IMG/VR virus record: IMGVR_UViG_2737471869_000024
Coordinates: 1 to 25,955 of that record
Reading direction: 5' to 3' (one strand)
Origin: a virus
Lineage: Duplodnaviria; Heunggongvirae; Uroviricota; Caudoviricetes
Length of the DNA stretch: 25,955 nucleotides
A program made the translations under genes and the position numbers. Position 1 is the first letter of the stretch; each line of letters opens with the position of its first letter. Below are positions 1 through 20,426 of the stretch, piece after piece. A model generated the notes under the pieces. That model was not told where the DNA came from, made no database searches, and saw nothing but the letters and a program-made list of their open reading frames with translations.

Positions 1-1842
1 ATGACAGTTACAACAAAGTTCAGAAATGACATTAATGGCCTAAGAGCTATAGCTGTTATAAGTGTTGTTTTGTTTCATTTTTCATCTTCTATAATTCCAG
101 GCGGATTTATTGGTGTAGACGTGTTTTTCGTCATATCTGGATACTTGATGACATCAATTATATTCAGAGGGATAGAATCTAATTCTTTTTCGGTTATTGA
201 CTTCCTGAAAGCAAGGGCGAGACGTATAGTTCCTGCTCTCGTTGCAGTTGTATTCCTTACACTGATTATTGGTTATATGTTCTTTGAGCCTATGACATTA
301 CAGATCATAGGAAAACATTCTGCGGCAAGTCTAACATTTATTTCCAATATTATTTATCAGTCTGAATCAGGTTATTTTGATGATACATCAAAGCAAAAAT
401 TTTTACTGCATACATGGTCGCTATCAGTTGAATGGCAATTCTATATAATTTACCCGATAGTGTTACTTGCACTGTCAAAGATATTGTCAATAAAAAATCT
501 TAAAATATTTGTTGTTGCGATTGCTGTTGTTTCTTTTGCATGGTGCATTTACATAACCAGAACTGATCCCGTGTCATCATACTTCAGCATCGCATCAAGA
601 GGTTGGGAAATGATGCTGGGAGGCATTGCTTTTCTGTTCCCGTTTAAAGGTAGCGATAAATCAAGACGAGTTTTGGAATCAGCAGGGCTAATATTGATCG
701 CGCTGTCTCTCGCGTTCATGAGCGAAAGCTTGGCGTGGCCTGGCTACATTGCGTTTATTCCAGTATTCGGGGCCTATATCTGCATTCTTGCTGACAATAA
801 AAGAACCATTCTTTCTGGTAAGATCATTGGAAAGCTTGGGCTCTGGTCCTATTCAATATACTTGATCCACTGGCCGGTAATCGTCTTTTGCGAGAAGACG
901 GGAATTGAGTTAAATATTTTCTGGTATCTGGCTGGTGTAGTGTCAGCCTCAGCACTACTTTATAGCCTTGTAGAGAAGCGTCGTGGTTATGGATGGGGAT
1001 TGCTTTTCTGTTATTGTGTATGTCTCGCAGCCGCTTTGTATGTCAATGTCGACGGGGTAAGTAGTCGCATTAAGAATCCTGATTACCATCTTAATAAAGA
1101 CCTGTTCCGCCGGGCTTACGAAGGACATTTATGGATGCAGCCTGGAGAGAATGTAGACTACTTCAACGCTACAGAAAAAGACTTTGACTACATCATACTT
1201 GGTGACAGCCATGCAAGACACTATTTCGCTTTCTTCAAACAAAGCGGTCTTAAAGTAGCATCGCTAGCTGCGGATGGTTGTAAAGTTACAAAGCATTTTA
1301 TGGGGCCGCTAAACTATTCTGAAAAACTCAGAAAGATTTGCGAAGGAAGATATAAGAAGGCCGTTGAATTCATTAATGCCCATCCTGGCAAGAAAGTCGT
1401 ATGGTTGCAAGCGTGGTATACTGGAAAGGTTGGAAACCCGCTAACGACTGACAATTCTTATAAAAATGATTTCATCAGTGAAATGAAATATTTTCTTGAT
1501 GATATTAAAGGCTCTAACAGCCAGATATATATTGTTGGTGATACCCAGGGAAGCAAGGAAATCATGTATCAATGCCTGGCATCACAAGACCTTCCTATTA
1601 ATAAATTATTCAGAAAATGCAATGAGTTTCAGGATTATATAGAGCCTGCAATGAATAGCAGATTTAAAATATTTGCTGAGCAATATCAAAAAGTTCATTT
1701 CGTTGACCCTAGCCCAGCAATATGCAGTGATGGCAAATGTAGAGTGGTTGATGGAGATATGCCTGTTTACACGGATAACTCTCATCTTACAAAGGTATGG
1801 TCAGTTAAGGTTGGTGAATATATCTTTAGCAAGATAAAGTAG
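1..1842 (+). CDS. O-antigen acyltransferase: N-terminal membrane acyltransferase-3 domain fused to C-terminal SGNH hydrolase domain (OafA/Oac-like lysogenic conversion enzyme)
   Basis: 613 aa ORF. The N-terminal ~350 aa are highly hydrophobic with multiple predicted TM helices and the acyltransferase-3 signature near the N-terminus (NGLRAIAVISVVLFHF). The C-terminal ~250 aa carry a GDSH block (ILGDSHARHY) and a distal D-x-x-H block (TDNSHLT), typical of SGNH hydrolases. The ATG is at window position 1, so no upstream context is visible and the start is unverified. A terminator hairpin follows directly. Confidence 0.8.
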   Translation: MTVTTKFRNDINGLRAIAVISVVLFHFSSSIIPGGFIGVDVFFVISGYLMTSIIFRGIESNSFSVIDFLKARARRIVPALVAVVFLTLIIGYMFFEPMTLQIIGKHSAASLTFISNIIYQSESGYFDDTSKQKFLLHTWSLSVEWQFYIIYPIVLLALSKILSIKNLKIFVVAIAVVSFAWCIYITRTDPVSSYFSIASRGWEMMLGGIAFLFPFKGSDKSRRVLESAGLILIALSLAFMSESLAWPGYIAFIPVFGAYICILADNKRTILSGKIIGKLGLWSYSIYLIHWPVIVFCEKTGIELNIFWYLAGVVSASALLYSLVEKRRGYGWGLLFCYCVCLAAALYVNVDGVSSRIKNPDYHLNKDLFRRAYEGHLWMQPGENVDYFNATEKDFDYIILGDSHARHYFAFFKQSGLKVASLAADGCKVTKHFMGPLNYSEKLRKICEGRYKKAVEFINAHPGKKVVWLQAWYTGKVGNPLTTDNSYKNDFISEMKYFLDDIKGSNSQIYIVGDTQGSKEIMYQCLASQDLPINKLFRKCNEFQDYIEPAMNSRFKIFAEQYQKVHFVDPSPAICSDGKCRVVDGDMPVYTDNSHLTKVWSVKVGEYIFSKIK

Positions 1843-1872: not shown

Positions 1873-3675
1873 TTATATCACCATATATCTGAAGCTTGCT
1901 CCGCCTGCAGCTGGAGAACCTGACTGCGTAGCAAGGACAAGACTTCCGTTTGATTGACTTAAAACATATGCATTTGCTGCTGCAGCTGAAGCATTTGCTG
2001 GGTGAATCACAACTTGTGAATAAGGTGTTATATTTTCATCAACTAGTGTTGCTGAAGCTACACCACTCAATCCATTGAATGACTTCATCACCATCTTTTC
2101 AGTTGCAGAAAGAAGGACGTTTCTTATTGTAAATGTACCTCCTCCAGTTGGGTTTAGCTTTGGAATGAGTGCACTTGTTACGGTTGTAAGATTGCAATTT
2201 GTCAGGACAAGATTATTTTGATAACTGGTAACCTGTGCAATACCTGAATTAACAACAGTGGCATTATTCACGGTGTTATCTGTAGCACCATCCGATTGGT
2301 TAACACCACTTTGTCCTGCAGCATTAATATAAGCTGAAAGAACTCTGGTATTTGCCGATCCTGCCGCAAAGTTAATACCGTTTTGCCCGCAAGTATTAAC
2401 ATAAACACTCTCAATTGTGGATCCTGTTGTTGGCAGTCCAGCATGTCCAAAGTTAATACCGTGGAAAAATTGCGTGTTGGTAGATATCAACTTTCCTGCC
2501 ATGCTCCAGCGGCAATCAAAACCAATGCCTGATGCTGATGCAAGATCCACAGATGCATAAAGCAAACGGTTATAATCACCACTAAATTGAATACCAGAAT
2601 AAGCGTCATCACCAGAAGCGCCTTGTGCATGCCCTAGTGCCGCAATACTTCTATTAGTTTTGTAAATATAAAACGCTTCATGCCCCCACGATTCAATCCG
2701 ATCAACGATAAACTTTGAGTAATGGCACTGATAGAAAAACAGGCAACCAGAGCCGTCATTGCGGATTCCATCTGGTGATGGTGCACTTATAAAAGTGCGA
2801 GGGTAGTAATGGTCATGGACATAATGAGCGTAAAAATCTACGTTCTGACACTCTGTCAGATAGACAAGATGGGTTCCAATCTGTCCTGATTGTCCTGCTT
2901 TATTACCATCAATCTCATTAATGTGAATTATTAGACCAGAGTTATTACCTGCTGCGTAAAGTAATCTGTCAAAGTCGACACATCCAGACGGTAATTTGAG
3001 CTTCCCCTTTACAATCACTTTTTTTGCTGAAGAAAGGTTGAGATTTTTTGCAACGAGAGTAAACCCTTCGGGAACAATCAGCATACCTGTATCGTCAATC
3101 ATCTTCTGAGCTGAGATTGATGATTCAACTTCGCTCACAGCTCCCCAATCTGCAACTGTAAGATTCTCTGCATTTTTTTCATGCTGAGTCCTTTTTACTG
3201 CTCCGGTATAAGGTTGAATAACAGGTATCATTGCATCTCCGTCGCTGATACCTGCACCAATCAAATCTGCAACAGTGTGACCAGGACAAAGACCTATTAA
3301 TGAGGCTCCATCATCACCAGACAACTCCTGTCTTAGCTGATCTGGATCATACTTCAACACGTTTGGATAGTTGAACTGCTGTGTACCATAAGCATCGTAC
3401 ACAGCCATAGAATGGCCTTGCACGGTAACGAATTTGGCAATCTGTCCGTTATATACAGGGTAACCAGCAGCGTTAATGATGATTGGTTGCGAAACAGGAA
3501 CGTGAGAGCCGTCTTCATTCTCCACATAAACCTGAATCTGGTTTTCAGGATTTACCGGGTCAGTGTCAATTTTACCGATATAAATTTTGCCATTGGCTAC
3601 GGCTTTAAAAGAACGCGCCATAGTGAAGAGTTGCGAAGGCATGCTTACCACAACATTTGCGGTGATATCTGTCAT
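1873..3675 (-). CDS. Tailspike protein (P22 gp9-type N-terminal head-binding domain fused to a different receptor-binding/O-antigen-cleaving beta-helix domain)
   Basis: 600 aa. The first ~110 residues ([46 protein letters not shown]...NVLKYDPDQ) closely match the P22 tailspike head-binding domain as I recall it. The remainder is Gly/Ser/Asn/Thr-rich and beta-helix-like but does not resemble the P22 receptor domain. GGAG RBS upstream. Last gene of the virion module. Confidence 0.9.
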
Positions 3676-3744
3676 TTAATTTGCTCCAGATACAAGGAAT
3701 CGCCGCAGCATGGCTACGGTGAATTTTGGGCATAAAAAAAAACC

Positions 3745-3770
3745 AGCCGAAGCTGGGTCGTTGCGTTGGT
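3745..3770 (-). terminator. Rho-independent terminator downstream of ant
   Basis: Minus-strand hairpin CCAGC-TTCG-GCTGG followed by a run of nine T, immediately after the ant stop codon and upstream of the tailspike RBS. Confidence 0.6.
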
Positions 3771-3776
3771 TATCTG

Positions 3777-4712
3777 TCAGTAGTTATGTACTGAAGGAGG
3801 TAATTCTTTATTCTTAAGTCTCATCCATGCGGAAAGATTCGTTGGTCCGTCTGGCTCATTGATATCAACATCTCGTGTGTGGTTTATTAAAACGTCTCTC
3901 GCCATTCCGATAACATACGAGAATTCATGACCGTAGTCGTAGCATCTGCCGGAATAGTTCGATTGAATTTGTTTTAGCGCCGGATACAGTTCGCGGAATA
4001 ATGCCTGTGAGCGGTTGGCATAATCCCATAACCATACAAGGCTGTTTGCTTCTTTTGCAGAAAGCTCGTTGGTTCTCTTCTCTTGTTTTCCAATGAACTC
4101 ACCTTCAAGTGGAACTCGAGCTGCAAGTGATAGTGCTTCGGTAAACTGCTCATCACTGATTTCTTTGTACGAACATCCAAAATGGGATTTTAGTGACGAC
4201 CACATGGTGATCATCGCCTTAGCCTGTTTTTCTTTTGGCAGAGACTGACCGCGACTCATGACGAGTTGTTTAATGGCTTCCTGCTGTTCAGTGGTGATTT
4301 TACCCGGCAACGCCTTTTTAGCTTTGCGTGGGTTAAATACATGACCTTTAGTCCAGTAGTCATGCAGCACGCTAAAGCATTCTTCCTGGTACTGAATCAG
4401 TTTATCACGGATGTCAGCACGAACTTTCTCAGGGTTGATGCTGAACAGCCATCCATTTAACTTCTTCAGCGGGATGCATAAAAGCTTACGTAACTTGCCA
4501 TCAGCAGCAACCATAGAGATATCTCTACAGTTGAATTTGTCCTTCATTTTACGCAACTTAACAGATTGACCAGTCCAGTCGATACCAATGTTTTCCACAA
4601 TTTGACGCATCGCTACATAAGTCACTCCGGCAGCCATAGCGGTTAAAATCTGCTGACCATTGAAAGGCACGTAAGAGGTGTTCACTGCTTCTAAAATTGC
4701 TATACTATTCAT
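3777..4712 (-). CDS. ant: Antirepressor Ant (immI region)
   Basis: The protein from the internal ATG at 4712 ([30 protein letters not shown]...) matches the P22 Ant N-terminus as I recall it. GGAG-type RBS upstream of that ATG. The supplied ORF extends 22 codons further upstream, which is probably not translated. Confidence 0.9.
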
Positions 4713-4780
4713 GTTGGTTTTTCTCCACGAATTTACCGACAACCGAAGCCCTGACTGTTCCAGCAGTTGGGGCTTCAACT

Positions 4781-4942
4781 TTACGCGCCAATGCGCCCTT
4801 CCTTCTTAAAGCTGTCCATTACTCTCTGATAAATCTCAGAGTTAACAGACCGACCATTCTCTTCCGCCACCTTGCGTACCAAATCCAATACTTCTTTAGG
4901 CCACCGCAAATTGAACTGCGGCATTTTTCTTGCGCCTTGCAT
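4781..4942 (-). CDS. arc: Arc repressor (ribbon-helix-helix)
   Basis: The 53-aa product from the ATG at 4942 ([53 protein letters not shown]) is near-identical to P22 Arc. GGAG lies 7 nt upstream. Confidence 0.88.
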
Positions 4943-5035
4943 ATTCCACTCCATTCCATTAAATGATAGCACCGTACTACTATTGAAAGCGTACTACTAC
5001 CGTTCTAGCATGTCAACAAATAACAGGAGAGCGAC
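4943..5035. promoter_or_regulatory. Divergent Pant/Pmnt control region with an Oarc-like operator and tandem direct repeats
   Basis: The 21-mer ATGATAGCACCGTACTACTAT (4963..4983) shares both arms (ATGATAG ... CTACTAT) with the P22 arc operator as I recall it. A perfect TTGACA -35 hexamer lies on the minus strand (5011..5016), and a TTGAAA -35-like hexamer on the plus strand (4983..4988). A 10-bp direct repeat CGTACTACTA occurs at 4973..4982 and 4990..4999. Confidence 0.45.
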
Positions 5036-5275
5036 GTGGCTAGAAACGATCCACAATTTAACGTAAGAATGCCAAGTGAAATCAAGCAGCAGCTTACTCA
5101 CATTGCGGCAACAAACAGGCGCTCTATCAATGCTGAAATCATAGCTGCAATACAGCTATGGATTAAGATTAACAGAGAAAAGGTCATACCATCGACATCT
5201 CAAGATCTCACAAAAACAGAGAAGGAAGCAATGGATATTGCAATTAGCGTACTTAAGAAGATTCGAGGCCAATAA
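5036..5275 (+). CDS. mnt: Mnt-like ribbon-helix-helix repressor (divergent variant)
   Basis: 79 aa with a GTG start preceded by AGGAGA. The N-terminus MARNDPQFNVRMPSEIKQQL resembles P22 Mnt (MARDDPHFNFRMP...), but the DNA-contacting beta-strand (His to Gln) and the whole C-terminal half differ. It is divergent from arc, as in P22 immI. Confidence 0.8.
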   Translation: MARNDPQFNVRMPSEIKQQLTHIAATNRRSINAEIIAAIQLWIKINREKVIPSTSQDLTKTEKEAMDIAISVLKKIRGQ

Positions 5276-5622
5276 TGAGCAGTAAGGAGCAATACTTAAA
5301 AGTTACTTTTGAGTCTTTTAGTAATTACTTGACTTCATTCAAAAAAACTTATGTATGCCCAATATGCAGCAATACAAACTGGACTCTTTTAGCACCGGAG
5401 CATCTTAAAAAAGATGATGGTGTTGAAGTTATAGGCCCATCCATACCAGGTAAAAGCTTGCCTAATAATCCTGTTAATCAAGATACTTATAGCAACGATA
5501 GTCTTAACATGGTAGCCATGCAATGCACCACTTGCGGTTTCTTCCACTTTTTTAGTTTAAACAAAGTTAGTGAAAATATCTCTTCTGGAAAATTCGTAAA
5601 GGGTGATGGAGATAATGTTTGA
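5275..5622 (+). CDS. Hypothetical Cys4 zinc-ribbon protein (cargo gene, translationally coupled to mnt)
   Basis: 115 aa. Its ATG overlaps the mnt TAA (TAATG), with GAGG 7 nt upstream. Two CxxC pairs (C28/C31, C84/C87). The region looks AT-rich compared with the flanking structural genes. No recognisable family. Confidence 0.6.
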   Translation: MSSKEQYLKVTFESFSNYLTSFKKTYVCPICSNTNWTLLAPEHLKKDDGVEVIGPSIPGKSLPNNPVNQDTYSNDSLNMVAMQCTTCGFFHFFSLNKVSENISSGKFVKGDGDNV

Positions 5623-6115
5623 CCAACATGTTCACAATAAATCACCTAGTATTTATGGAGATGCTCAAAGCCAACATGAAAACCTTGACTTTGACAAATC
5701 GTTATGGAGTTCAATAGAAAACGCTAAATATTCAGAGTATTACAGACCAACTGGCAGAAATCCGTCAAAGGAACCACAAATATTTAGCCTACAAGAAGAG
5801 CAACACAAAGAAGAAGGTCGTGATACCGTGAAACGTTTAGAGCTATACGGGGTTGCAGTTGCTATCATTGGTTCTATCGTTGCCGCCACATGGACGATTC
5901 GAGGCACTATAGATGATAAAGTTGAATCATCACGACAAGAGCTAACAGGAAACATCCAAACCAGTAAGGCAGAGATAATGGCTACTATCCAAAACAACCA
6001 ATCAGTATTACAGTCAAGGATTGATAACACTGATCAAAAATTAGACTCGACAAACCAATCTCTTTATAAGGTATTGGCTATATTAGAGTCTCAAAAAGAC
6101 AAACGTTCTCAATAG
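5606..6115 (+). CDS. Hypothetical single-pass membrane protein with C-terminal coiled-coil-like domain (cargo gene)
   Basis: About 166-170 aa. Possible starts are GTG 5603, ATG 5606 and ATG 5615, all overlapping the end of the upstream ORF. One strongly hydrophobic segment (LELYGVAVAIIGSIVAATWTI) is flanked by K/R. The C-terminal ~70 aa are Q/S/T/N-rich with heptad-like spacing. Confidence 0.6.
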   Translation: MEIMFDQHVHNKSPSIYGDAQSQHENLDFDKSLWSSIENAKYSEYYRPTGRNPSKEPQIFSLQEEQHKEEGRDTVKRLELYGVAVAIIGSIVAATWTIRGTIDDKVESSRQELTGNIQTSKAEIMATIQNNQSVLQSRIDNTDQKLDSTNQSLYKVLAILESQKDKRSQ

Positions 6116-6136
6116 TTTCTTGATTTATTACCTATA

Positions 6137-6171
6137 GCTGCATGATTGATGTCTGTTGAAAATCATGCAGC
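6137..6171 (+). repeat. Perfect 11-bp inverted repeat (GCTGCATGATT ... AATCATGCAGC) with 13-nt spacer in the intergenic gap
   Basis: Read directly from the sequence; lies between the second and third cargo ORFs, 25 bp upstream of the AAGGAG RBS of the third. No clear U-tract follows. Confidence 0.4.
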
Positions 6172-6195
6172 ATTGATAAATCTAAGGAGATCGGC

Positions 6196-6516
6196 ATGTA
6201 CATATCGCTCTCTACCATTTTTTTCATCTGCTTAGCTATTTGGCTTTTAAGAATATGGCAGGATTGCTCTGTCAGCCATGCTGCTGCGGTGAGAAATAAA
6301 AACGCCCTCATAAAAGAAGCTGAAAACGTTGTCTTATCAATGGATCACCTTTCATGGACCGAGATGACTACAGGGCAACAAGAGGTTTATGAGTGTGCGA
6401 TTGAGCGGTTAAGGCTGCTTAAATCGTACAAAAAGAACCACGCTCCCGACTCATTCCCATTCCTGAAAGAATGGCCGAGATGGTATGACCCGAAAAAAGC
6501 AACCATCAACCGCTAA
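6196..6516 (+). CDS. Hypothetical small membrane-anchored protein (cargo gene)
   Basis: 106 aa with a strong RBS (AAGGAG, 7 nt spacing). N-terminal hydrophobic segment MYISLSTIFFICLAIWLLRIW, either a signal anchor or a signal peptide (possible AxA-like site SHA-AAV). The stop codon lies 8 bp from the convergent gp16 stop. Confidence 0.6.
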   Translation: MYISLSTIFFICLAIWLLRIWQDCSVSHAAAVRNKNALIKEAENVVLSMDHLSWTEMTTGQQEVYECAIERLRLLKSYKKNHAPDSFPFLKEWPRWYDPKKATINR

Positions 6517-6524
6517 CCAACTTT

Positions 6525-8531
6525 TTACTGCTGGGCTTTCTCACTTGAAGCCTGAATTAGAGGTGTAAGAGTTTCAGATACCCGTCTGATCGCTCTATCA
6601 TAAGCAGTACTTCCTTTTGGCGTGTTTGCTAACTTTAGTAATGCGTTCCTCATCGCGCGTGACTCATAGCCCCTGCCAGCCATACCGATACCAGCTCCTA
6701 CTGCCGCAACTTTTGCAAACATTGGATTTGTAACAGACGCAAGAGCTGTTATCAGCGCTGCTGGACCAGCTACCATTTGCCCTGTTAGTGGGCTTGCGGC
6801 AGCAGTAGCTGCCTGTCTAGTGGAATCAAGATATTTCATTATCCCATCAAGCTGTTTCCCATGCTCTCCTCTGAAGAACGTCTCAGCCTGCTTCCGATTC
6901 CTTTTCATTTCATTAATAAACTTCTCAACGCTAAGCTTTCCTGAATCGCTTGTCGCCTTATCCATTGCACGCTGAACAAGTGCTGCTCTAGCATTTTGAC
7001 GCCCACTATCATCAAGCAATCGATAAAGTTGCGCCCTTTCCGCTGGGCTTTGGCTGAATACTAGTTTAGTGACATCTTCTGGCGTTGTTTTACCACTCTG
7101 AATAGCTTTTTGGACACGTGTATTGCTCATCATGTCGTTGAACTTTGCCCAAGAACGATCAACACGCGACATGTTTTGCGCTTCCTTCGCACCTAGTTTT
7201 GCGCCAACCGCTTTTTTCATGTCTGTTGTGTATGCGTTATAAACAGACTGCGCAGCTTTCTCCAGCGTATCTCTATCGACCTCGTCAGGTGCTGCCATAA
7301 AGCGCTTACGTAAGTTTGTACGGTTTTCTCTAGCTAATTGCAGGTTATTTGGACCGCTGGTGATGTCATTTCTAAACTGTTGAAGGACAGAAACAGCTGA
7401 GCGGTCTTGCGATACTCCTGGGCGAGTTAACTTGGAAATCTGCTCATCAATTGCTTTCACTGTTCCAGTGATGTCAACAGGAGTATCCCCCATCAAACTG
7501 ATGATCCTGTCGTACCGCTTGCCAGCAGCCTGAATAAATTGCTGCTGACCACGAGTAGCTGATTGGTAAAGTTGTGCGTCAGATATTCCACCAACATTAT
7601 CGCTAAATGTTCTAACTAAATCTTCCCTGGCCTTTTGCTGTGCATTTCTTATCCCACCTGTTCCGGCTATTGGGATTCGCTCAGCCATAGCTCGTGCTTG
7701 CTTACCAATATTTGTTCCCGGTTCCACAAGATCTGTTGTCATCAGTGGCAAGTTGTTCTGCTTGGCAAAGTCAATCTGAGCTTGTTTTTCAGGAGCAATC
7801 TTACCCATAGCAGAACGAGACACTGCGCTTGCGGTGTTTTCTACACCCTTCAGTACCCCACCAAGACCAGCAGAAATTGCAGTTTGAACTGGATTAACAT
7901 TCTCACCGCCAGCGATCTTAGTGGCACCCTGTAAAGCTAAATCAGTAGCGCCTGATTTTAGTGTTGCACCTACAACAGACGCAGCTCTACCTGCTGGAGT
8001 GAATGCAAGAGCATTTGCCAAGAATGACGTTATATCCTGCGGTGACAAACCAGGCTTGTTAAGTGCATATTCCCCTGAAGGAAGGGTGACTATGGAATTT
8101 CCCTTCTCATCCTTCCGGATTTTCCCGCCAATACTTTGCAGTATTTTCTCCTGTGAAGCGTCGGAACCAAATAGCTGCCCCAATCCAGCACGCAGCGCAT
8201 CAGTGCTTAAGCTATTAAGCTCTGGAGCAGACCCAACATTTTGCAGTCTCTCCATTTCTGGTGTCATTCGGCTTTCACCGGTAACGGCATCGCGCATTGC
8301 AGCACCTAAAACAGCCCCTTGCTCAGCAGAGCGATCTAGTCCTTCCTTCTGCTGAGTGGCAAGCTGTGCATATCCTGATGCAAGTGAGTTGTCTGCTGGC
8401 GATTGCTGAACACCTTGTTGTGTTGGTGCTGACTGACCAGCAAAATACTCATCAATGGCGGCGCCAATATCTTCGGTGCTCGTACCATCAGGAAAGGTAA
8501 ATGTCTTACCGTTTGCAGTAACTTTCATCAT
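6525..8531 (-). CDS. Ejection (internal/E) protein, P22 gp16 homolog
   Basis: 668 aa, last of the three ejection genes in conserved P22 order (7-20-16). Start overlaps the upstream gene stop. Confidence 0.8.
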
Positions 8532-9943
8532 TCCACCGTAAATTGAATGCCTGATTTTGAGGTATATGATCCAACCTGATTCCGTGGTTCTCCTGAAGGT
8601 GTCGAATCTTGTGCTGGCGCTGCGTCAGTATTCATTGACATATACCGCTTAACGGCACTCCCCAATGATTCACCTTTTTTAACATCCAACCCCAATATCT
8701 GACCGCCATTACGCGATTGTCCAGGGTTGCCATTCGCGCTCATCCACTCAGCTTTAAACTCATTAAACTGCGCGTTTCGTCGCTCAAGGTTTGCCATTGC
8801 ATCAAGCCATCTTGCGACCGTCTCAGGGTTATCCATGTCAGTTGGCGCACCCTGACGAACGATCTCAACGTCTTTATCCGTTGCTGGGCCGGGAGGTAGG
8901 AATTTAAGGACCTGACTGTTAACAAGGGCATTTTGGCGAATGCGCAAATCACGCAATGTTGTATCGCTTCCGGTAAGTTTTGCGAACATGTTCTGTGCGT
9001 TACCGAACAAACCTGTCGTTGGTTTTTCTGCTCTGAACTGTTGAGCAAGCGCACTCATAGAATTGGCTGAGTTTGATGATGCTGTAGCATTGTTTACAGC
9101 CGTCTCGATGCCTTTTTCCATGTTTACTGACAGCTTAGGTGCTTCGCTAATCAACTGCTGAGCCTTTTCCTGCGCTTGCTGCATCTTAAACCCGAACTCT
9201 TGCTGATCCAGAGCCAAGCGTTGTGCTGCGATATTGTGCCCAGTCATTGCTGACTGATAGGAAAGGTTTTGCCCTCTCGCCTGAAGTGCCTCGCCAGCCT
9301 GATTGCTGCGGATTGTCTCTGCCAGTCTGCCTCGGTCAATCTCACGACCAGCCATCTTGTCCTGAACAGCAAACGCCTTTTCTGGTCCAAGCGCACCGAG
9401 AGACATAGTAGTCAGCATGTGTGATAGCTGCTCTGGATTCTGGATACCTGTCTGAATCATCCAGTCAGCATTCGCCCCCACGCGATTTAACCTGTCCTTG
9501 TTGTCAGTAATGAATTTACTGTAGGCTTCCGGTCCCTGGGAAAGAGCGACGTTAGCCCTCATGGCTAAATCGCCCATATCGTTGCGTTGCTGCTCATTAA
9601 GACCGGAAAACGCCTGTTGTGCCTGTGCAACAAACGCTGGATTTTCCTGGGCAAACTTAAATAGTCCAGATGGATCACCAGAAGCCCATGCATCAGCGTG
9701 AACCTTATTGAACGCACTAATAGCTTTCTGTTGCTGTTCCTGATTGTAAATATCAGCAACTCCAGCCAGACCACGTAACGCGGTCAGACCAATGTTATTT
9801 GCACCTGAGCGAGCCAGTTCATTGTTTTCGCGGATCAGACCAAGCGTTGCGTTAATGTCGCTTGCCTTTGGCGCATTCTCATTTTGCGTACCGATGCCAG
9901 CCAGAAAACCACCAGAATTAATACCCTGTTGCCACGTAGCCAT
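8528..9943 (-). CDS. Ejection protein, P22 gp20 homolog
   Basis: 471 aa, the size I recall for P22 gp20. Synteny between gp7 and gp16. Confidence 0.8.
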
Positions 9944-9953
9944 TGATTACCCC

Positions 9954-10646
9954 TTAAAACAACGAGCCAAGCAGACCAAGACCGCCGCCGATCGCAGCCC
10001 CCCACGGAGTTGATGAACCAATTAATTTCGCAAGTCCAGCCCCAGCAATAGCACCAGACGCACCTCCGCCAATAGCAGATTGCATTGCTGATGGTCTGTT
10101 GGCATTTGCCGCTGCAAGAGCCGCACTTTGCTGCGAAATCTGACTCATGTTGTTGGCATATGTCTGCCCTGCGTTTGCCTGACCTTGCAGAGCACCAAGC
10201 CCAACGTTTGCCAGATTCTGGTAGTTGTTCATCTGACCAGACAGCCACTGCTGACCAAGCGTTGGTGCGATTGTTGCTAACTGATTACCGGTTGCAGTGG
10301 AACCCAATCCACCTGTTGCTTCCGCTGCCGCCAGACTCTGATAGCGAGCCTGACCAGCAAGATCTTTGTACTGCTGAGAGTTGTAATACTGGTTAAGTGC
10401 CTGACCTTGCCCTTCCAGAGACGATAAGTTCTCGAGGCTGCCGACATACTTATCAGCCAGAGGAGTAAACGGCTTCAGGTTGTTCATGATGGTGTTGAAC
10501 TGCTGATTTTGCAGGTTTGCTGCATACTTCTGAGCTTCTGCTGCATACTTTGCGCTTTTATCAGAGCTGCCACCTTTCCCGCCTTTTTCATGGCACCAAG
10601 GTTCCTCGCCGCGCAGTTTTCTGCCCAGCTTAAATGCATATAACAT
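9954..10646 (-). CDS. Ejection protein, P22 gp7 homolog
   Basis: 230 aa with a Gly/Ala-rich hydrophobic C-terminus. Synteny after gp14. Confidence 0.78.
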   Translation of the reverse strand: MLYAFKLGRKLRGEEPWCHEKGGKGGSSDKSAKYAAEAQKYAANLQNQQFNTIMNNLKPFTPLADKYVGSLENLSSLEGQGQALNQYYNSQQYKDLAGQARYQSLAAAEATGGLGSTATGNQLATIAPTLGQQWLSGQMNNYQNLANVGLGALQGQANAGQTYANNMSQISQQSAALAAANANRPSAMQSAIGGGASGAIAGAGLAKLIGSSTPWGAAIGGGLGLLGSLF

Positions 10647-10648
10647 GG

Positions 10649-11104
10649 CTATCTCCCGTGATTCAGGAAGTCGATTAGTTCTTCGCGCGTGGCGCTGTAA
10701 AAAGTCACGTCATCCACGCCTTTGAAGTATTTCTTGATGGTTCCTACACGCTTAAGGCCAATCATTGCGCAGTACATCTGACCGTGGCGGAATTTGCGCG
10801 CAGCGAACGATGTGACGCACTGAACGGTGGTGTTAGTCAGAATGTATCGCCAGAACGCCAGCCCGATTTCCTTGCTGAATCCACGAACCTCTGGCAGGTA
10901 CATGGCGTGGCAATCGAATGTAAGCGGCTGAATTTCCTGATAGTAAACAATGCCGCCAAACTGACCGTACACGTTAACCTCAAAGTAACGGCATTCAGGC
11001 TTGTAGTCGTATCCATCACCGTTGTTGCTTCCGGCAATAATGTCAGGGTGATTTCCGACTGCTTCTATCAGGTCGATGTTTCGCGTTGGTTTGAACTGAA
11101 TCAT
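10649..11104 (-). CDS. P22 gp14-like virion/assembly protein
   Basis: 151 aa in the gp14 position between tail needle and gp7. Assigned by synteny only. Confidence 0.65.
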   Translation of the reverse strand: MIQFKPTRNIDLIEAVGNHPDIIAGSNNGDGYDYKPECRYFEVNVYGQFGGIVYYQEIQPLTFDCHAMYLPEVRGFSKEIGLAFWRYILTNTTVQCVTSFAARKFRHGQMYCAMIGLKRVGTIKKYFKGVDDVTFYSATREELIDFLNHGR

Positions 11105-11952
11105 TACTGCTCCGCGATTATCTTGATGGTTGTGGCAGTAAACGCCGCACCATTTGACTGAATGGTTAACGTGCTGCCATTTGTGGCAAGAAAGCCGTCT
11201 TTATCCACGCTGAATAACGTAGCTAACAGGATGTTATCGGTCGTTGTCGCCGAGTTGCGACTGCTTACCAGTGTGTCAGGAACAGAGCCGGAAAATGTTA
11301 GTTGCATTGACCTGTTGGCGGTTCCGCTGGGCCACGTCCCGACGATCGACAGCTTGAAGAACAGGGTTTTGTTCTCGTTGAACACAACCATCTTGTTGTT
11401 AACGGTGTCGAAGAATGGTGCCAACGTGCCGGATGACGGCGTGAGCGTTTTCAGCAGGCTAACAAGGTTGGTCGGCGCTGTCGGGATGGTTACAGATACG
11501 CCAGAGTAAACAACCTCTGACTTCTTGCGAGTAGTGGCATACTCCAGAGCATCGATGCGCGTTTCATGGTCTGAAACCTGCGACTCCAGCGACTGAACTC
11601 TGGTATCAAGCGACGCAATATCGCTTTCATTCTGAGTGATTCGTGTTTCATGTTCCTGAAGAGTTGATTCTGCCTGGCTGATTCGCTCCTCATGATTAAC
11701 AAGCGTTGCTTCTGCAGCAGAAATTCGCTGCTCATGGTCAGCGAGAATCACATCCTGCTCATCGTTCCTGACTTGTGCATCATAAGCGCCCTGTCCGGCC
11801 TCGTTGGCCTTGTTAGCCACGTTACCAACATCAGTACCCTGTGCGATAACGTACAGCAGATACGACTGCGAGAAGATATTGCGTGGAAGGATTGATGTGT
11901 CGAGCCGTGTAGCCTGAATGATTACCGGCACATTGAGATTCGAATCCGCCAT
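11104..11952 (-). CDS. Tail needle (P22 gp26 family) with Sf6-type C-terminal knob domain
   Basis: 282 aa. N-terminus [43 protein letters not shown] closely matches P22 gp26; a central heptad-rich coiled coil follows, then a ~100-aa C-terminal extension absent from P22, as in the Sf6 needle. Confidence 0.88.
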
Positions 11953-13370
11953 TACTCAATCCTTATCTGGCAACCAGACAGAGTGACAGGTGACTTCGTG
12001 ATAACGCGCAATTTGAAGCCGACATTTTTCCTGATGCGCCCGACACGCTTCCACAAAACGCGTTTGTCGTAAACGAACGGTTCATTCTGCTCAATCATCT
12101 GCTCACGTCCGTAATTGATGCCGTCAGTGGTTGCAGAGAGAAAAAGGCGGTCGGCGTACTGCGCAACGCCAGTTGACGATTCAACCTCAAGATCAAAACA
12201 TCTGGCGTTCTCAGCTTTGAACAACGGAGTAAACAACAGGTGTTCTTGCTGTAGCCCATACTGGCTGCTGATATCGAACTGCAGTTTCCCGGTCACGGAT
12301 TCCAGCTTATCGCCGCACGTTATCTGATTGCCTTCGTAAATGAAGTCGATAGCGCGGTACACATCGTCATACAAGCCTGTTTTCAGCACACACCATTGCG
12401 GACCATTGGCGCTTGAAGATGCGTCGTACACGAGAACATGGCGCGGAAGGTGGATAATCAGCAACTCATGAGCATCAAAGCGCAGAGACTCCATCACGCC
12501 ATCAGCCAGTTCATCAGCAGTGTAGGAGCGGAGTATTTTCTCAATGCTCGCGCTGGCGATTGGTGACACCTGACCGGAGCCGATGATGTATACAGATGGC
12601 GCACCAGTTGCCGGATTGCTGATAAACGCATACGAATCAGCGAATGGCGTTTTGCAGTAAGTTCCGGCAATGCCTTTCTGCACCATCAGCGATGGTTGTG
12701 CAACATACAAAGCGGCACCAACGGTGGTTGCACCTGTCAGGGAAAAATATTCAATCGTCGATGAACCAAAGCAGACAATGAAGTCTCGCCATGTTCCGAT
12801 TCCGATGATTCCGTCCGGCTGCGATTCTGCCCGATATTGTGCGCTGTAGCGGTCAGGATGCGATTCGTCTCCAAGGTCAGTGATAAACCATGAATCAGTT
12901 CCGTCTTTTGACCACGCATAACGCCCACGTAAGCGCGTAATGTCGCGAACCGAACCTAACTCATACTGCGTGAATCCGCTGTCTGTAGGCCAGTTTGAGA
13001 CGGTTTTAACCGTGCCATCATAACGATACTCGACCAGTTGACCATTAACGCCTACTGCCTGTGATGTCCTACCGTGCGCCATTGATACGCGGCCACTTCC
13101 GGCGACGTCACCGACTTCACTTTCGCCTTTGTAGAGCTTTCCACCACACACACGATAAACAGCATTCTGCGCCATGTTGTACTCGACGCCGCGCGATATA
13201 CCGTTCACATCAGAACGTTTGGCAATGCCCGGGAATGAGCGAAGATATCCGCTGCTGTTGAGTATTTCTTTGGGTGTAGCCAACATATTCACTGGCAGAT
13301 AGTCGATATAGTCAGCGTTTCTAAAGTCTTTGCCGACACCTTTCATAAGCGGAAGTTGCTGAATCGGCAT
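11952..13370 (-). CDS. Tail hub/accessory protein, P22 gp10 homolog
   Basis: 472 aa, the size I recall for P22 gp10. Synteny between gp4 and gp26. Confidence 0.85.
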
Positions 13371-13379
13371 TTATTCACC

Positions 13380-13841
13380 TCACGTACTCGGATCATCTTT
13401 CTCGATGTAAAACCGATTCCACGTAAACGCGCTTTTGTTACCACTACCGCGAGGCATGTCATTTCGCCGCTCAAGTGGTGGTATTTTGGTTAAAGCGATG
13501 CAGATTGTCTGATATGCACTGTCAGCAGCGGTAAGGAGAGCGTCTGACGGCTGAATGACGTTATCCATGCACACCTGCACAGCGAGCTTCAAAGCGACGC
13601 CATCATTTGCCCATGCAGGGATACCTGAATCATCGTCAGGTAACGGCATGATGCCGTTTTCTGTATCAGCAAACTGATATCCAAGCTCGATACCTTTAGC
13701 CTGCCATGCTGCCATCATGTCTTCGAGGTCATTAATGGCATCTTCAATTGCCTGAGGGTCAGCATCTGTCAACGTGGCATTGGAATACAGCCCGGCTTTT
13801 CGTAAAGCCTTAAGAACGAGATCACCCTTCGTTTTCGCCAT
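13380..13841 (-). CDS. Head-completion / tail adaptor protein, P22 gp4 homolog
   Basis: 153 aa. N-terminus MAKTKGDLVLKALRKAGLYSNATLTDADPQAIEDAINDLEDMMAAW parallels P22 gp4. Confidence 0.88.
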   Translation of the reverse strand: MAKTKGDLVLKALRKAGLYSNATLTDADPQAIEDAINDLEDMMAAWQAKGIELGYQFADTENGIMPLPDDDSGIPAWANDGVALKLAVQVCMDNVIQPSDALLTAADSAYQTICIALTKIPPLERRNDMPRGSGNKSAFTWNRFYIEKDDPST

Positions 13842-14010
13842 CTTCTTCCGCCTTAGCCACTTTATGCTTCGTTGCGGTTTCTTCAGGAGTTTTTACCCAG
13901 CCTTTTTTCAGGTGAGATTTAACTTCTTCGTCATCAACAATGATGTAATCGACAGCAAACTGACCACAGGTGATCATGTTGCCAGGCTTATAGAGCATTG
14001 TTCGTGCCAT
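13822..14010 (-). CDS. Small hypothetical protein between coat and gp4
   Basis: 62 aa from the internal ATG at 14010, with GGGAGA RBS 5 nt upstream; the supplied ORF's longer start is unlikely because it would begin inside the terminator hairpin. Sf6 has a small ORF in this position. Confidence 0.5.
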   Translation of the reverse strand: MARTMLYKPGNMITCGQFAVDYIIVDDEEVKSHLKKGWVKTPEETATKHKVAKAEEDGENEG

Positions 14011-14021
14011 TGTCTTCTCCC

Positions 14022-14048
14022 AATAAAAATGGGGCCGAAGCCCCACCA
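14022..14048 (-). terminator. Rho-independent (probably partial) terminator after the coat gene
   Basis: Minus-strand hairpin GGGGCTTCGGCCCC followed by ATTTTTATT, immediately after the coat stop codon. Confidence 0.55.
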
Positions 14049-14051
14049 AAA

Positions 14052-15305
14052 TTACTGCCCGGCAATAACGATGCCCGTATATTCAGGAACAAGTACAGAG
14101 CAACCGTACAGAGTGGTGAAACGAGCAGTGGTTACGCCTTTGATGTGGTCGAAGGCGTAAGACATGATCAGCGTAGCGCCCTGCTCGGTGGTTGCTGTCA
14201 TTACCTGTGGACCCTGACCAGTCGGGAACGCCAGTTTTCCGTACATCAGTTCAACAGAACCATCAGCCCAGAACAGGTTAGCCGGTGCTGCATTTTTGTT
14301 GAGAATGGTAATTGCTGCACCATTTGCCGCGTTAGCATCAACGTTTGCATATGGACGGCTGGCAACATCTGCGTTGTCAGGCGGCAGAATTTTCGGGGAG
14401 ATAGTTACTGTCGTTCCGCTTACTGCCAGAACGCGGAATACCTGCGGCTGCCCGGTGGTGTCTTTGGTGATCTGGTGTACAGAATTCACGCCAGCAATGG
14501 TGAACGCATCGCCAACCTGCAAACCAGATGCAGATACCGTAATGGTCCCCTGTCGGTTATCCACTGGCATATCGTTGGCATCTTTCGCTTCAACCTTGTG
14601 CGCAGGTTCAGCCGCCAGCGTCAGGGAAGTTGCTGTACCTTTCGGAACACGACCAGAAATATCGGTCTTGTAGCTATCGAAGGACGCAACCGGAGGGATC
14701 TGCGCTTTTTCGTATGCTGTCAGGGTTGCGCCCTGAGCATAGGCACGGTGACCAAGCTCGCCAGCAAGGTCTTTGTAGTTGAAGGGGTTCCAGAAAGAGC
14801 GACGGTTGATACCCTGAGGTACACCAATCGCCGTCATGGTGGCATCAATATCTGCCGCACCATTCCACAAGGCAAGGCCCCGTGAGCCATTTTCTGAGGC
14901 AGGAATTGCGACCACGTTAGTAGCACGCTGCGTAACCATGGAAATCAGGTCAGAGTCAATCTGTGCAGCAAGGCGCATACCTGCGGCGCGACCAGCTTCA
15001 GTTTTATGTTCCGGGTCACGCATTTCACGCGCATCCAGAGTGTACAGAATGTTTTTCGGCTCCTTGAACACAGAAGGAACAAGGCGCTGAACCAGTGCTG
15101 TTGGCGTTTTGCTGCTGAGGTCGAGGCCTTCCTCAATATTCATGTGGTAATGCTGCGGACGATACAGAACATCACCTGCTCGCTGCATTGCTGTATCACC
15201 GGGACGGAATTTTTTAGCGTTACGGGAAACTACGCAGGCGGCCTCAAAGCCTTCAACGTAGTTTTCGAACATGATTTCAAGGTCTTTTGCTAATTGGTTA
15301 GCCAT
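14052..15305 (-). CDS. Major capsid (coat) protein, P22 gp5-like
   Basis: 417 aa in the expected position after the scaffold gene; size and position fit a P22-type coat. Followed by a terminator hairpin. Confidence 0.88.
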   Translation of the reverse strand: MANQLAKDLEIMFENYVEGFEAACVVSRNAKKFRPGDTAMQRAGDVLYRPQHYHMNIEEGLDLSSKTPTALVQRLVPSVFKEPKNILYTLDAREMRDPEHKTEAGRAAGMRLAAQIDSDLISMVTQRATNVVAIPASENGSRGLALWNGAADIDATMTAIGVPQGINRRSFWNPFNYKDLAGELGHRAYAQGATLTAYEKAQIPPVASFDSYKTDISGRVPKGTATSLTLAAEPAHKVEAKDANDMPVDNRQGTITVSASGLQVGDAFTIAGVNSVHQITKDTTGQPQVFRVLAVSGTTVTISPKILPPDNADVASRPYANVDANAANGAAITILNKNAAPANLFWADGSVELMYGKLAFPTGQGPQVMTATTEQGATLIMSYAFDHIKGVTTARFTTLYGCSVLVPEYTGIVIAGQ

Positions 15306-15323
15306 GCTTAATGCTCCGATAGG

Positions 15324-16217
15324 TTATTTTTTTGCCTTTTTAGCGGCGAAATACGGCGTCCAGTCACCAGTTTCCAGCGCCTTGGCTTTCAATTTGTCGA
15401 TGTTGTTGATTACTGCGCCGTTGCTCCCCTTAACTGTCGGGGTTGTGGCTGCCGTGGTTTTTGCTTTTGGCATGATTCTGGCCTTCGATTCGATACGTTC
15501 CAGCAGACGACCAATTGCTACGGGGTTGGTAGCTTCTGCCAGTTGCTTGCGCAGTTCAGCGTTGCGACCGAGTGCCAGAACAACGATTTCCGGCTTCTCT
15601 GACTCAAACAGGATCGCGTTTTGTGTCTCGATGGGGATTTCCTCGAGTACGGCCTGCTCAGCTTCCTGATAGCCAGGAACTTTGAGAGCCTTAACACGTT
15701 GCTGATATTTGGATAATCGCTCTTGATAGGCAGCCTGAAGCTCCTGCTCCTTCTGCTTGCGAGCCATCTCCTGTTGCTGGTACTTGCCGTTATCCTCTGC
15801 CCACTTAGCCATGCGTTGCTGGTAGATTTCTTCATCGAAACCGATGTCCTCATCGTCCAGTTTTGGCATTCGCGGTGGTTGAGTAATTACCGGCTGCTGC
15901 TCGACGGGTTTCTGAGACTGACGCATCAGCTCTTTCAGCTCGCGGTCTTTCTCTTTAATCGTCTTGCGCAGGTGTTTTACCAGTCCATGCTCTGCGCCAT
16001 CTTCGCTGGTTGGCGAATCCAGCTTTTCGTCACCAAAGTAGAATTCCTGTTCTGATTCGTCGTCATCAGTTTCAGTAGCTTCCTCTGCATCATTGCCGGA
16101 GGACTCACTGCCATCTTCTGTTTCGACTTCTTCAGCCAGTTCGACATCATCAGGAATCTGCTCTGACGCGTCGGTTTCGATTTCAACTTCTGGTGTGTTT
16201 TCTGCCATCTGGTCCAT
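15324..16217 (-). CDS. Scaffolding protein (P22 gp8-like)
   Basis: 297 aa, highly acidic N-terminus, charged helical coiled-coil-like composition, located between portal and coat. Confidence 0.85.
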   Translation of the reverse strand: MDQMAENTPEVEIETDASEQIPDDVELAEEVETEDGSESSGNDAEEATETDDDESEQEFYFGDEKLDSPTSEDGAEHGLVKHLRKTIKEKDRELKELMRQSQKPVEQQPVITQPPRMPKLDDEDIGFDEEIYQQRMAKWAEDNGKYQQQEMARKQKEQELQAAYQERLSKYQQRVKALKVPGYQEAEQAVLEEIPIETQNAILFESEKPEIVVLALGRNAELRKQLAEATNPVAIGRLLERIESKARIMPKAKTTAATTPTVKGSNGAVINNIDKLKAKALETGDWTPYFAAKKAKK

Positions 16218-16307
16218 TTGTTACCCCTGTTTACTCGATGTTCAGCCCATCGGAAGGCAATAGGTTGCCAGGCCTCATAAAGACAGCCATTGCACGTTAT
16301 GGGTTAA

Positions 16308-18506: not shown

Positions 18507-18507
18507 A

Positions 18508-19986: not shown

Positions 19987-20426
19987 TGCGTCTCGCTTTT
20001 TACAATGTTATACACTGGAGCTTTTGGAGTCATGGAGCCGTCATCAGATGTATGGTTGACGTCCTGCTTCTCTCGCCATTTATCTTTCTGTCTGTTCTTG
20101 AGCCAGAAGATGGCGGCAGTTGTATCAGGCGGGTAATACTTCTTAAGCGGAGTTTCGACAATTCTGTTTTCAATAACACGAATATCGATGTCTGGAGCCA
20201 CGAAGCCCATAGCGCGTTGATAAAGACGGTCACTAACTTCTGCATCAGCAACGGCCTTACCCTTTTTTATGGACTCCGAAAACTTAGGATAATCAAGCTT
20301 CCACTTGTTAATAGTTGACTCACTGACTTCGAAGAAATCAGCAAGCTCTGCATCGGTGTAGCCCAGCAAGCACAGTTTGCGTGCCTGTTCGGCGTACGCC
20401 TCTTGATACTTTGTTGGGCGCGCCAT
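19983..20426 (-). CDS. Terminase small subunit
   Basis: 147 aa with an N-terminal HTH-like segment (YTDAELADFFEVSESTINKWK); 4-bp overlap with the large terminase start. Confidence 0.7.
   Translation of the reverse strand: MARPTKYQEAYAEQARKLCLLGYTDAELADFFEVSESTINKWKLDYPKFSESIKKGKAVADAEVSDRLYQRAMGFVAPDIDIRVIENRIVETPLKKYYPPDTTAAIFWLKNRQKDKWREKQDVNHTSDDGSMTPKAPVYNIVKSETQ

Follow-up and report, generated by a model that had tools for sequence, protein, structure and literature searches.

We analysed a 25,955-nucleotide (nt) stretch of viral DNA (IMG/VR record IMGVR_UViG_2737471869_000024, positions 1 to 25,955; the window), which represents the late/immI region of a P22-like (Lederbergvirus) prophage, and concentrated on three small plus-strand open reading frames (ORFs), ORF1 to ORF3, between a mnt-like repressor gene and a gene 16-type ejection gene. 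Positions 4700-6700, which include these genes, are 99.8% identical to the Escherichia phages N7 and HZ41. A first-pass annotation made from the sequence alone had described the three products as a 115-amino-acid (aa) Cys4 protein, a bitopic membrane protein and a 106-aa N-terminally anchored membrane protein and had proposed that they form one cassette for superinfection exclusion or defence. The genes are present as described, with ORF2 encoding 166 aa. Judged from their distribution among relatives, the block appears to consist of two independent prophage accessory modules, the ORF1/ORF2 pair and ORF3, and a protective role of the pair, expressed in the lysogen, is plausible.

The mnt-like gene is the first gene of a plus-strand operon. 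At the DNA level, it shares 85.6% identity with the arc/mnt region of Salmonella phage Emek, where the gene is annotated as mnt, and RefSeq names the product 'Arc family DNA-binding protein'. As had been noted in the first pass, the mnt stop codon and the ORF1 start codon have one base in common (TAATG, 5273-5277), and ORF1 overlaps ORF2. This second overlap comprises 8 nt (ATGTTTGA) with the RefSeq start of ORF2, the ATG at 5615; an ATG at 5606 or a GTG at 5603 would yield proteins of 169-170 aa with the same end at 6115. The proposed coupling of both genes to mnt also agrees with the transcription signals, as a consensus scan identified a Pmnt-like site as the sole plus-strand promoter-like site ahead of the block and no terminator-like site within positions 5275-6516. 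The position of this promoter corresponds to the divergent Pmnt/Pant region of P22-like immI. ORF3 has an AAGGAG 7 nt upstream of its start and is convergent with gene 16, with 8 nt between the two ends. The gene 16-type gene, after which gene 20- and gene 7-type ejection genes follow in the annotation of N7, is the neighbour that anchors the position of ORF3 and lies outside the cargo. As the order in P22 is mnt - ORF59 - sieA - gene 16, ORF3 takes the position of sieA and ORF1/ORF2 that of ORF59. The locus is thus the one at which P22 carries sieA, as had been claimed for the entire block, but only ORF3 holds the sieA position itself.

Table 1 Features of the mnt to gene 16 region and its surroundings in the window.
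Feature	Position	Strand	Evidence or identifier
Tailspike gene	1873-3675	minus	
ant	3777-4778	minus	
arc	4781-4972	minus	
Pmnt-like sigma-70 promoter, TTGAAA-17-TAGCAT	4983-5011	plus	Consensus scan, consensus match only
mnt-like Arc/ribbon-helix-helix repressor gene, 79 aa, GTG start	5036-5275	plus	Pfam Arc, 4.8e-13
ORF1, 115 aa, predicted soluble Cys4 zinc ribbon	5275-5622	plus	phrog_4293; RefSeq WP_024203682
ORF2, 166 aa, predicted single-pass membrane protein	5615-6115	plus	phrog_24865; WP_024222613
Perfect 11-bp inverted repeat GCTGCATGATT / AATCATGCAGC, 13-nt loop	6137-6171	plus	ORF2-ORF3 spacer
ORF3, 106 aa, predicted N-terminal membrane anchor	6196-6516	plus	phrog_10450; WP_000275950
Gene 16-type ejection (DNA transfer) protein gene	6525-8531	minus	Homologues carry Pfam PF26808 Phage_P22_gp16

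The GC content rises along the block (ORF1 0.351, ORF2 0.381, ORF3 0.436, compared to 0.496 for the virion genes at 6525-20426), and its AT-richness is equalled by just 1.6% of all 1242-bp windows across the whole stretch. The low values of ORF1 and ORF2 (0.35-0.38 vs 0.50) are a pointer to foreign origin. The first-pass description of the block as AT-rich cargo accordingly applies to these two genes, but ORF3 lies outside it. The border of the two parts, the pair module and ORF3, is also marked by the inverted repeat in the ORF2-ORF3 spacer. Its extended fold (~6115-6190) reaches up to the Shine-Dalgarno region of ORF3 and has a predicted energy of -25.9 kcal/mol (z = -2.97, RNA folding). As an intrinsic terminator this hairpin was rejected, since it has no U-tract and was not called by the scan. 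Cross-locus similarity 5' of ORF3 starts just ~20 nt ahead of the start codon, and the hairpins preceding ORF3 differ among phages (6137-6171 in the window, ~5955-6000 in locus L004, and others in L039/L043). The L004 hairpin, which is located between mnt and ORF3, has a GC-rich stem with TTTTGTT behind it and looks terminator-like by eye. In view of these differences, ORF3 may be transcribed by read-through, by processing or from cargo-specific promoters.

ORF1 is predicted to adopt a zinc-ribbon fold in which two family-conserved CxxC knuckles (residues 28-31 and 84-87) sit on beta-hairpins. The residues C28, C31, C84, C87 and G88 are invariant in 13 members of the family, and hydropathy analysis indicated no transmembrane (TM) segment. 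In the AlphaFold2 (AF2) model, the zinc-ribbon core reached predicted local distance difference test (pLDDT) values of 80-90 (69 overall), with strands 36-39, 79-84 and 90-94 flanking the knuckles and a poorly defined insertion of ~40 residues. A full HMMER search among 1.84 billion cluster representatives returned ~12 genuine relatives, all of 104-159 aa and 25-35% identical to ORF1. The protein matches phrog_4293, a family of unknown function, over its full length (E = 4.7e-31). Fold searches against the PDB and BFVD gave no significant match past generic zinc ribbons, the top BFVD match being a 'putative zinc binding domain' protein (E = 9.5e-3, probability 0.90). A resemblance to MqsA was dismissed as noise.

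ORF2 exhibits a single predicted TM segment (aa 77-95), which is preceded by a variable N-tail of 76 aa and followed by a conserved juxtamembrane motif (ATWTI..I.DK..SRQEL.GNIQ) and a helical C-terminal domain of ~70 aa with a heptad pattern. Its relatives are 32-46% identical over the TM helix and the downstream helical domain and display the motif (A/T)TW(T/A)IS.NI..K...SRQE; the full-length profile match, phrog_24865 (E = 2.8e-116), is likewise of unknown function. The charge distribution in 11 relatives favours an N-in/C-out topology with a periplasmic location of the conserved helical domain, because the N-tails of these proteins (54-79 residues with 5-12 Lys/Arg) are unlikely to be exported and positive charge is slightly enriched on the N-side of the TM segment. 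A natural variant was noted at L054/L055 (4378-4581), where the membrane partner of a CI-linked lineage has only 99 aa, starts 200 nt past the zinc-ribbon gene and, with a 10-residue N-tail in L054, is missing the usual ~70 aa. The DNA of the gap is closed in the one frame translated, so either the N-tail is dispensable or this copy is decaying. Neither ORF2 nor six of its relatives matched XhlA (Pfam PF10779) or the holin PHROGs. A weak match to CyanoTRADDas_TM among the ORF2 relatives (five of seven, E = 0.018 or worse) was rejected as sub-threshold. Within ORF2, a 96-aa antisense ORF (5740-6030, minus strand) is present, with equivalents of 90-132 aa in most of the type-A relatives listed (L002, L010-L012 and L021-L023; see below). 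Rather than being a gene, it probably mirrors the bias of the sense strand, which codes for a coiled coil.

For the branch that includes ORF1/ORF2, referred to as type A, we recovered the genomic context of ~11 diverged lineages (~30-45% identity), comprising the window and the loci L002, L010-L013, L021-L023, L052-L054 and L056-L060. Every lineage examined had the ORF1-type gene followed by an ORF2-type single-pass gene, and the ORF2 type was always found directly after a gene of the ORF1 family. The spacing ranged from a 29-nt overlap to direct abutment (0 nt), with the 200-nt gap at L054/L055 as the exception. In ~9 of the ~11 lineages, a prophage repressor gene of the same orientation immediately precedes the pair. 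In two of these, the window and L059, the repressor is Mnt/Arc; L059 shows an ATGA overlap with the mnt stop and has no ORF3. The remaining repressor-linked pairs lie behind at least six different CI/helix-turn-helix (HTH) repressors and upstream of N, which is the slot of rexAB in lambda, at distances of 28-337 nt from the repressor gene (less than 110 nt except in L056). Outside the repressor slot, pairs were found at a contig end (L052/L053) and at the edge of an island beside ssrA (L060). At L002, cI and the pair are not separated by any promoter- or terminator-like site. The stop codon of the pair is followed by a hairpin, and another promoter-like site on the plus strand occurs only further downstream, ahead of N. 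This arrangement resembles that of cI-rexA-rexB. As these slots lie behind repressor genes, the pair would be produced in the lysogen. Among 5426 complete E. coli genomes, 41 contain the pair, in all cases with at least 99% identity and in isolates of human, bovine and beef origin; these carriers probably represent largely one prophage lineage. The CI-linked variant of the L002 type was absent from the same genomes at megablast level.

A sister branch, type B, is represented in a P22-like prophage (L003) with the order mnt - zinc-ribbon gene - partner gene - ORF3 - gene 16. The zinc-ribbon protein at this locus also belongs to phrog_4293 (E = 8.7e-29) and aligns with the ORF1 family in hhalign at a probability of 85% (E = 6e-6). 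Type B is commoner, occurring on 70 IMG/VR contigs and in 14 phage records, including SPN3UB-like siphoviruses of Salmonella, Klebsiella and Enterobacter. In 62 of the 65 scorable IMG/VR loci, the zinc-ribbon gene is overlapped by a downstream ORF that encodes a coiled coil and a C-terminal TM segment. These partners yielded matches to phrog_689 'holin' (5.4e-6), phrog_1193 'hemolysin' (3.2e-4) and Pfam XhlA (5.8e-5, under the curated cut-off). The pairs, preceded by a terminator-like hairpin as read from the sequence, mostly belong to a cluster of morons for lipoproteins and secreted proteins. In the SPN3UB-like siphoviruses (L061, i.e. SPN3UB 2456-3859, L062 and L063), this cluster is small, with the type-B pair at its head and one or two such genes behind it, and lies between an antirepressor module and the tape-measure gene. 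Homology between the type-A and type-B partners, including a circular permutation, was considered and rejected: one pairwise local motif (probability 26%) vanished at the profile-profile level.

ORF3 has a single predicted TM segment at its N-terminus (aa 3-21) and matches phrog_10450, of unknown function, over its full length (E = 3.2e-52). According to the AF2 model (pLDDT 84), a long helix (residues 5-48) is followed by a second one (59-77), such that the membrane helix would run into a helical hairpin. Relatives, which are 38-77% identical, expose 1-2 residues ahead of the TM helix and have 3-6 positive residues just past it, and this charge pattern predicts an N-out/C-in topology. A cleavable signal peptide is unlikely, as the n-region is without positive charge, the -1 residue is unconserved (R in P0018) and helix 5-48 is continuous in the model. 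ORF3 relatives were found on 24 IMG/VR contigs, on all of which they are convergent with gene 16 and separated from it by a few tens of bases at most. The identities of ORF3 and gene 16 fall in step across these contigs (99%/99%, 66%/87% and 41%/37%).

The distribution of the genes is not that of a single three-gene system. The ORF1/ORF2 pair was present on only 5 of the 24 ORF3-bearing contigs and missing from the other 19, and L004 is another case of ORF3 without the pair. Among the complete E. coli genomes, 57 possess ORF3 (at least 99% identity), 16 of these beyond the carriers of the pair. Conversely, the pair occurs without ORF3 in L059 and at all CI-linked loci. A remote ORF3 homologue was also detected in the siphovirus mEp043 (mEp043_049, 38% identical, same PHROG, E = 2.5e-54), directly downstream of cI. 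From the predominance of ORF3 without the pair and from this relative behind cI we conclude that ORF3 is a stand-alone gene and a module separate from ORF1/ORF2, whose family also occupies a repressor-adjacent slot. Three ORF3 matches came from E. coli records labelled as plasmids (NZ_CP081694.1 and two others), one of only 29.7 kb, which may be unintegrated or misassembled P22-like phage genomes.

Other P22-like contigs carry different cargo in the slot between mnt and ORF3. ORF3 contigs without the pair have a 69-aa protein and a 74-aa membrane protein there in some cases and nothing in others. Four loci (L030, L031 and L034, ~4202-4783; L035, 3414-3995) encode a 193-aa protein of phrog_23516, of unknown function and without Pfam or PADLOC match. 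The mnt allele at these loci is a different one, and its stop codon overlaps the start of the cargo gene, which is the same coupling as seen for ORF1 in the window. At L040 and L045 (4299-4940), the mnt-linked cargo is replaced by a complete second repressor gene of the HTH and S24 (LexA/CI-type) kind directly upstream of ORF3. In a distant P22-like phage (L047, 3024-3383), the gene between mnt and an ORF3 relative encodes a lipoprotein-like protein of 119 aa that contains a Rap1a domain (Pfam, 9.1e-18). Rap1a is an immunity protein against amidase effectors of type VI secretion, which suggests that cargo of this slot can protect against attack by bacteria and not only by phages.

At the other end of the tailspike gene, a 613-aa ORF (1-1842, plus strand) opens at the first base of the window. 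Its product joins an AT3 acyltransferase (Pfam, 1.2e-29) to an SGNH domain (2.8e-26), as do the O-antigen acetyltransferases of lysogenic conversion. The ORF converges on the tailspike gene; in phage N7, this place is taken by an integrase gene and by a tailspike that differs and is longer.

The first-pass annotation had recognised no family for any of the three proteins, and our searches led to the same result. Nothing above threshold was obtained for ORF1-3 in Pfam, NCBIfam or PADLOC; weak profile matches to DUF4407, Lar-like proteins and CapR were sub-threshold and rejected. Together with mnt, the three proteins gave zero matches at E up to 1 against PADLOC-DB v2.0.0 (5027 models, dated 2023), PDB sequence searches with the family profiles returned nothing at E < 0.01, and fold searches with the AF2 models nothing significant. 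All three are hypothetical proteins in RefSeq and in the N7 record. Their RefSeq accessions gave no match in searchable paper texts or the DefensePredictor supplements, and a literature keyword search, with recent defence catalogues outside its scope, retrieved no description of a zinc-ribbon plus TM prophage pair. Since each has diverged homologues at the protein level, ORF1-3 are real genes and not chance ORFs. Likeness to P22 SieA was likewise not found: aligned by hhalign to SieA (type A only), the ORF3 family scored a probability of 0.1% and the ORF2 family 0.4%, and the SieA motif FxRYPxEAxxFNK is absent from the translations of ORF1-3.

Taken together, ORF1/ORF2 are strictly paired, translationally coupled and repeatedly captured downstream of repressor genes from two unrelated classes. 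These facts point to an accessory function that is expressed in the lysogen, and a protective nature of this function gains strength from the relatives that sit directly behind CI-type repressors, in the rexAB slot. The genomic signature and the order of a soluble followed by a membrane protein are those of rexAB and of membrane-toxin toxin-antitoxin (TA) or abortive-infection modules, which favours a model of sensor and effector. We therefore prefer to view the pair as a Rex-like lysogen module of a cytoplasmic regulator and a membrane effector, accompanied by ORF3 as a separate, membrane-anchored candidate exclusion protein, and put the probability of this reading at roughly 45%. According to this model, both modules would be expressed from the mnt (immI) operon, and the pair would move as a unit among slots behind repressors, namely mnt in P22-like and cI in lambdoid phages. 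We infer that ORF1 and ORF2 act as partners. ORF1 may serve as a cytoplasmic sensor or as an antitoxin-like restraint of ORF2, and ORF2 would be the effector that compromises the inner membrane once a superinfecting phage is detected, in the manner of lambda RexAB or a membrane-toxin/antitoxin module of abortive infection. ORF3 would be a stand-alone membrane protein of the lysogen, anchored in the inner membrane by its N-terminus and with its helical-hairpin domain probably in the cytoplasm. It would most plausibly act in exclusion; its replacement of sieA by position and its co-segregation with gene 16 make such a role plausible.

Further points speak for this Rex-like reading. The low GC content of ORF1 and ORF2 is one, and protective cargo elsewhere in the slot, namely the Rap1a-like lipoprotein and P22 sieA, provides a precedent. 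The holin/XhlA-like partners of type B hint at an effector, which is supporting but indirect. Several observations weigh against it. The type-A family is rare, as apart from the 41 E. coli genomes it is known from two isolated phages (N7 and HZ41), and pattern scans for the ORF1 and ORF2 families in GTDB species-representative genomes and JGI metagenome contigs gave no confirmed relatives. ORF2 itself does not significantly resemble holins, XhlA or RexB. Relatedness between the type-A and type-B partners was undetectable (hhalign 0.6%), so that homology gives no grounds for extending the holin hint to ORF2. The majority of type-B pairs are located downstream of antirepressor genes in a moron cluster and not behind a repressor, which makes repressor linkage a property of type A only. 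Finally, if the C-terminal domain is periplasmic, the L054 partner without a cytoplasmic N-tail has no obvious docking site for a cytoplasmic ORF1.

A bolder extension would regard the phrog_4293 zinc ribbons as a new, Enterobacterales-wide class of two-gene immunity modules of temperate phages. Here, a cytoplasmic sensor would be combined with interchangeable single-pass effectors (ORF2-like in type A, holin/XhlA-like in type B), located in repressor operons (rexAB slot, immI) or moron clusters, and would kill or depolarise the cell upon superinfection; ORF3 (phrog_10450) would be a second exclusion protein, unrelated to SieA, that travels with gene 16. This we offer as a tentative proposal, with the odds rather against it.

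Among the alternatives, an injection-blocking superinfection exclusion fares best, but appears unlikely. ORF3 and/or ORF2 would, like SieA, obstruct the trans-envelope conduit formed by gp7, gp20 and gp16 of P22-like phages, and ORF1 would be accessory. The position of ORF3 on all 24 contigs is precisely that of sieA and its divergence tracks that of gene 16, yet the latter is expected from physical linkage alone. The ~70 helical residues of the conserved ORF2 domain are probably periplasmic, as would suit such a function. However, neither the sequence nor the architecture is similar to SieA, the proteins having one TM segment instead of several, and to our knowledge a cytoplasmic zinc-ribbon partner is no feature of known injection blockers. 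The ORF3 relative behind cI in mEp043, a siphovirus without P22-type ejection proteins, argues against a specificity of ORF3 for such proteins. As sieA is found in just 22 of 66 P22-like phages (PMC10883804), other proteins may fill its role. For ORF3 taken by itself, we consider a block of the injection type doubtful. For the pair, the first-pass argument from adjacency to the ejection genes is weak, because most pair relatives reside in lambdoid immunity regions far from such genes.

The block might also be cargo for lysogenic conversion or regulation unrelated to phage conflict, with products that modulate envelope stress, division or signalling or feed into the immunity switch, and with ORF1 as a regulator tethered by ORF2. 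Another conversion gene, the AT3-SGNH acyltransferase, lies nearby, the slot holds secreted proteins and lipoproteins in other phages, and a bitopic coiled-coil protein resembles divisome and spanin-type architectures. Adjacency to a repressor could by itself reflect a regulatory link, but the pair is found behind two unrelated repressor classes with different targets (ribbon-helix-helix Mnt and HTH/S24 CI), which is more in line with joint expression in the lysogen than with a partnership for regulation. As profile and fold searches detected no DNA-binding or signalling domain either, we regard this explanation as distinctly unlikely.

Slightly less likely still is that the pair constitutes an addiction or TA-like module, in which a membrane toxin and a zinc-ribbon antitoxin stabilise the prophage or lysogeny without a dedicated anti-phage function. 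A small soluble gene followed by an overlapping small membrane gene is typical of type II TA operons in sizes and coupling, loss of the linked repressor genes would be penalised, and the partners in the sister branch are holin- and hemolysin-like; similarity to any known toxin or antitoxin family was, however, not found. Since prophage TA modules often also act in abortive infection, this explanation overlaps with the Rex-like reading and does not exclude it.

A single obligate three-component system of all three genes might be suggested by their contiguous run along one strand, in which no terminator-like site intervenes, by their joint presence in 41 E. coli genomes, on 5 IMG/VR contigs and in phages N7 and HZ41 and by the zinc-ribbon pair ahead of ORF3 in L003. 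Such a system is contradicted by the distribution described above, by the different GC contents (0.37 vs 0.44) and by the break in homology ~20 nt before ORF3, and is highly improbable.

The repressor operons of temperate phages are the home of classic exclusion systems such as rexAB and sieA, to which bstA is to be added. About one third of P22-like phages carry sieA, and our analysis addresses what the slot contains in the remainder. An anonymous trio of hypothetical genes is thereby resolved into two defined, clonable units, a zinc-ribbon/membrane protein pair and a membrane protein locked to the ejection gene. Should either protect lysogens, a new protein family would be added to prophage-encoded immunity, along with a compact system of ~0.8 kb for the gating of a membrane effector by a cytoplasmic sensor, and the pair could influence the phage susceptibility of the 41 E. 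coli strains that carry the prophage. Should neither do so, both would be ordinary morons.

Compared with known systems, ORF1 shares the CxxC...CxxC knuckle pair with beta-hairpins with generic zinc ribbons (TFIIS-type, Lar/restriction-alleviation-like), but differs from them by ~52 residues inserted between the two knuckles and by an N-terminal helix with a conserved F..F..YL motif. The XhlA and small holin-like tail-anchored proteins (PF10779, phrog_689 and phrog_1193), to which the type-B partners are weakly matched, are likewise small and single-pass with a coiled-coil segment; ORF2 remained unmatched and has the reverse arrangement, with the TM segment before the helical domain. With type II TA systems, the pair has the small bicistronic operon with overlapping, coupled genes in common. 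BstA and other single-gene prophage defences use the same lysogen-expressed slot of P22-like and lambdoid prophages, with the gene for BstA placed downstream of cI. BstA is a large soluble DNA-binding protein, whereas ORF1-3 are unrelated to it and form small membrane-associated modules. Its literature record describes BstA as a prophage-encoded abortive-infection protein.

The closest counterpart of ORF3 by location is P22 SieA, whose gene shares its operon and strand with mnt and, flanked by mnt and gene 16, takes precisely the place of ORF3. SieA is active in the inner membrane, has several predicted TM helices and contains the conserved motif mentioned above (PMC10883804). ORF3 is also a predicted small inner-membrane protein, but ORF2 and ORF3 differ from SieA in having one TM segment each, and ORF3 differs further by its relative behind cI in mEp043. 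The closest counterpart of the pair is lambda RexA/RexB, which likewise combines a soluble with a membrane protein gene. In most type-A relatives, the pair occupies the same slot, directly 3' of a same-strand repressor gene and upstream of PL/N, with presumed co-expression with the repressor in lysogens. It differs from RexA/RexB in sequence, to which it has no similarity (nor did ORF1/ORF2 match PADLOC, Pfam or NCBIfam), in the upstream repressor, which in the window is Mnt of immI instead of CI, and in size. RexA has ~279 aa and RexB is a protein with four TM segments, as opposed to the 115-aa zinc ribbon and the single-pass protein found here. The protein families of the pair and of ORF3 hence appear to be new, whereas the kind to which we assign them, accessory or exclusion modules of repressor operons, is known.

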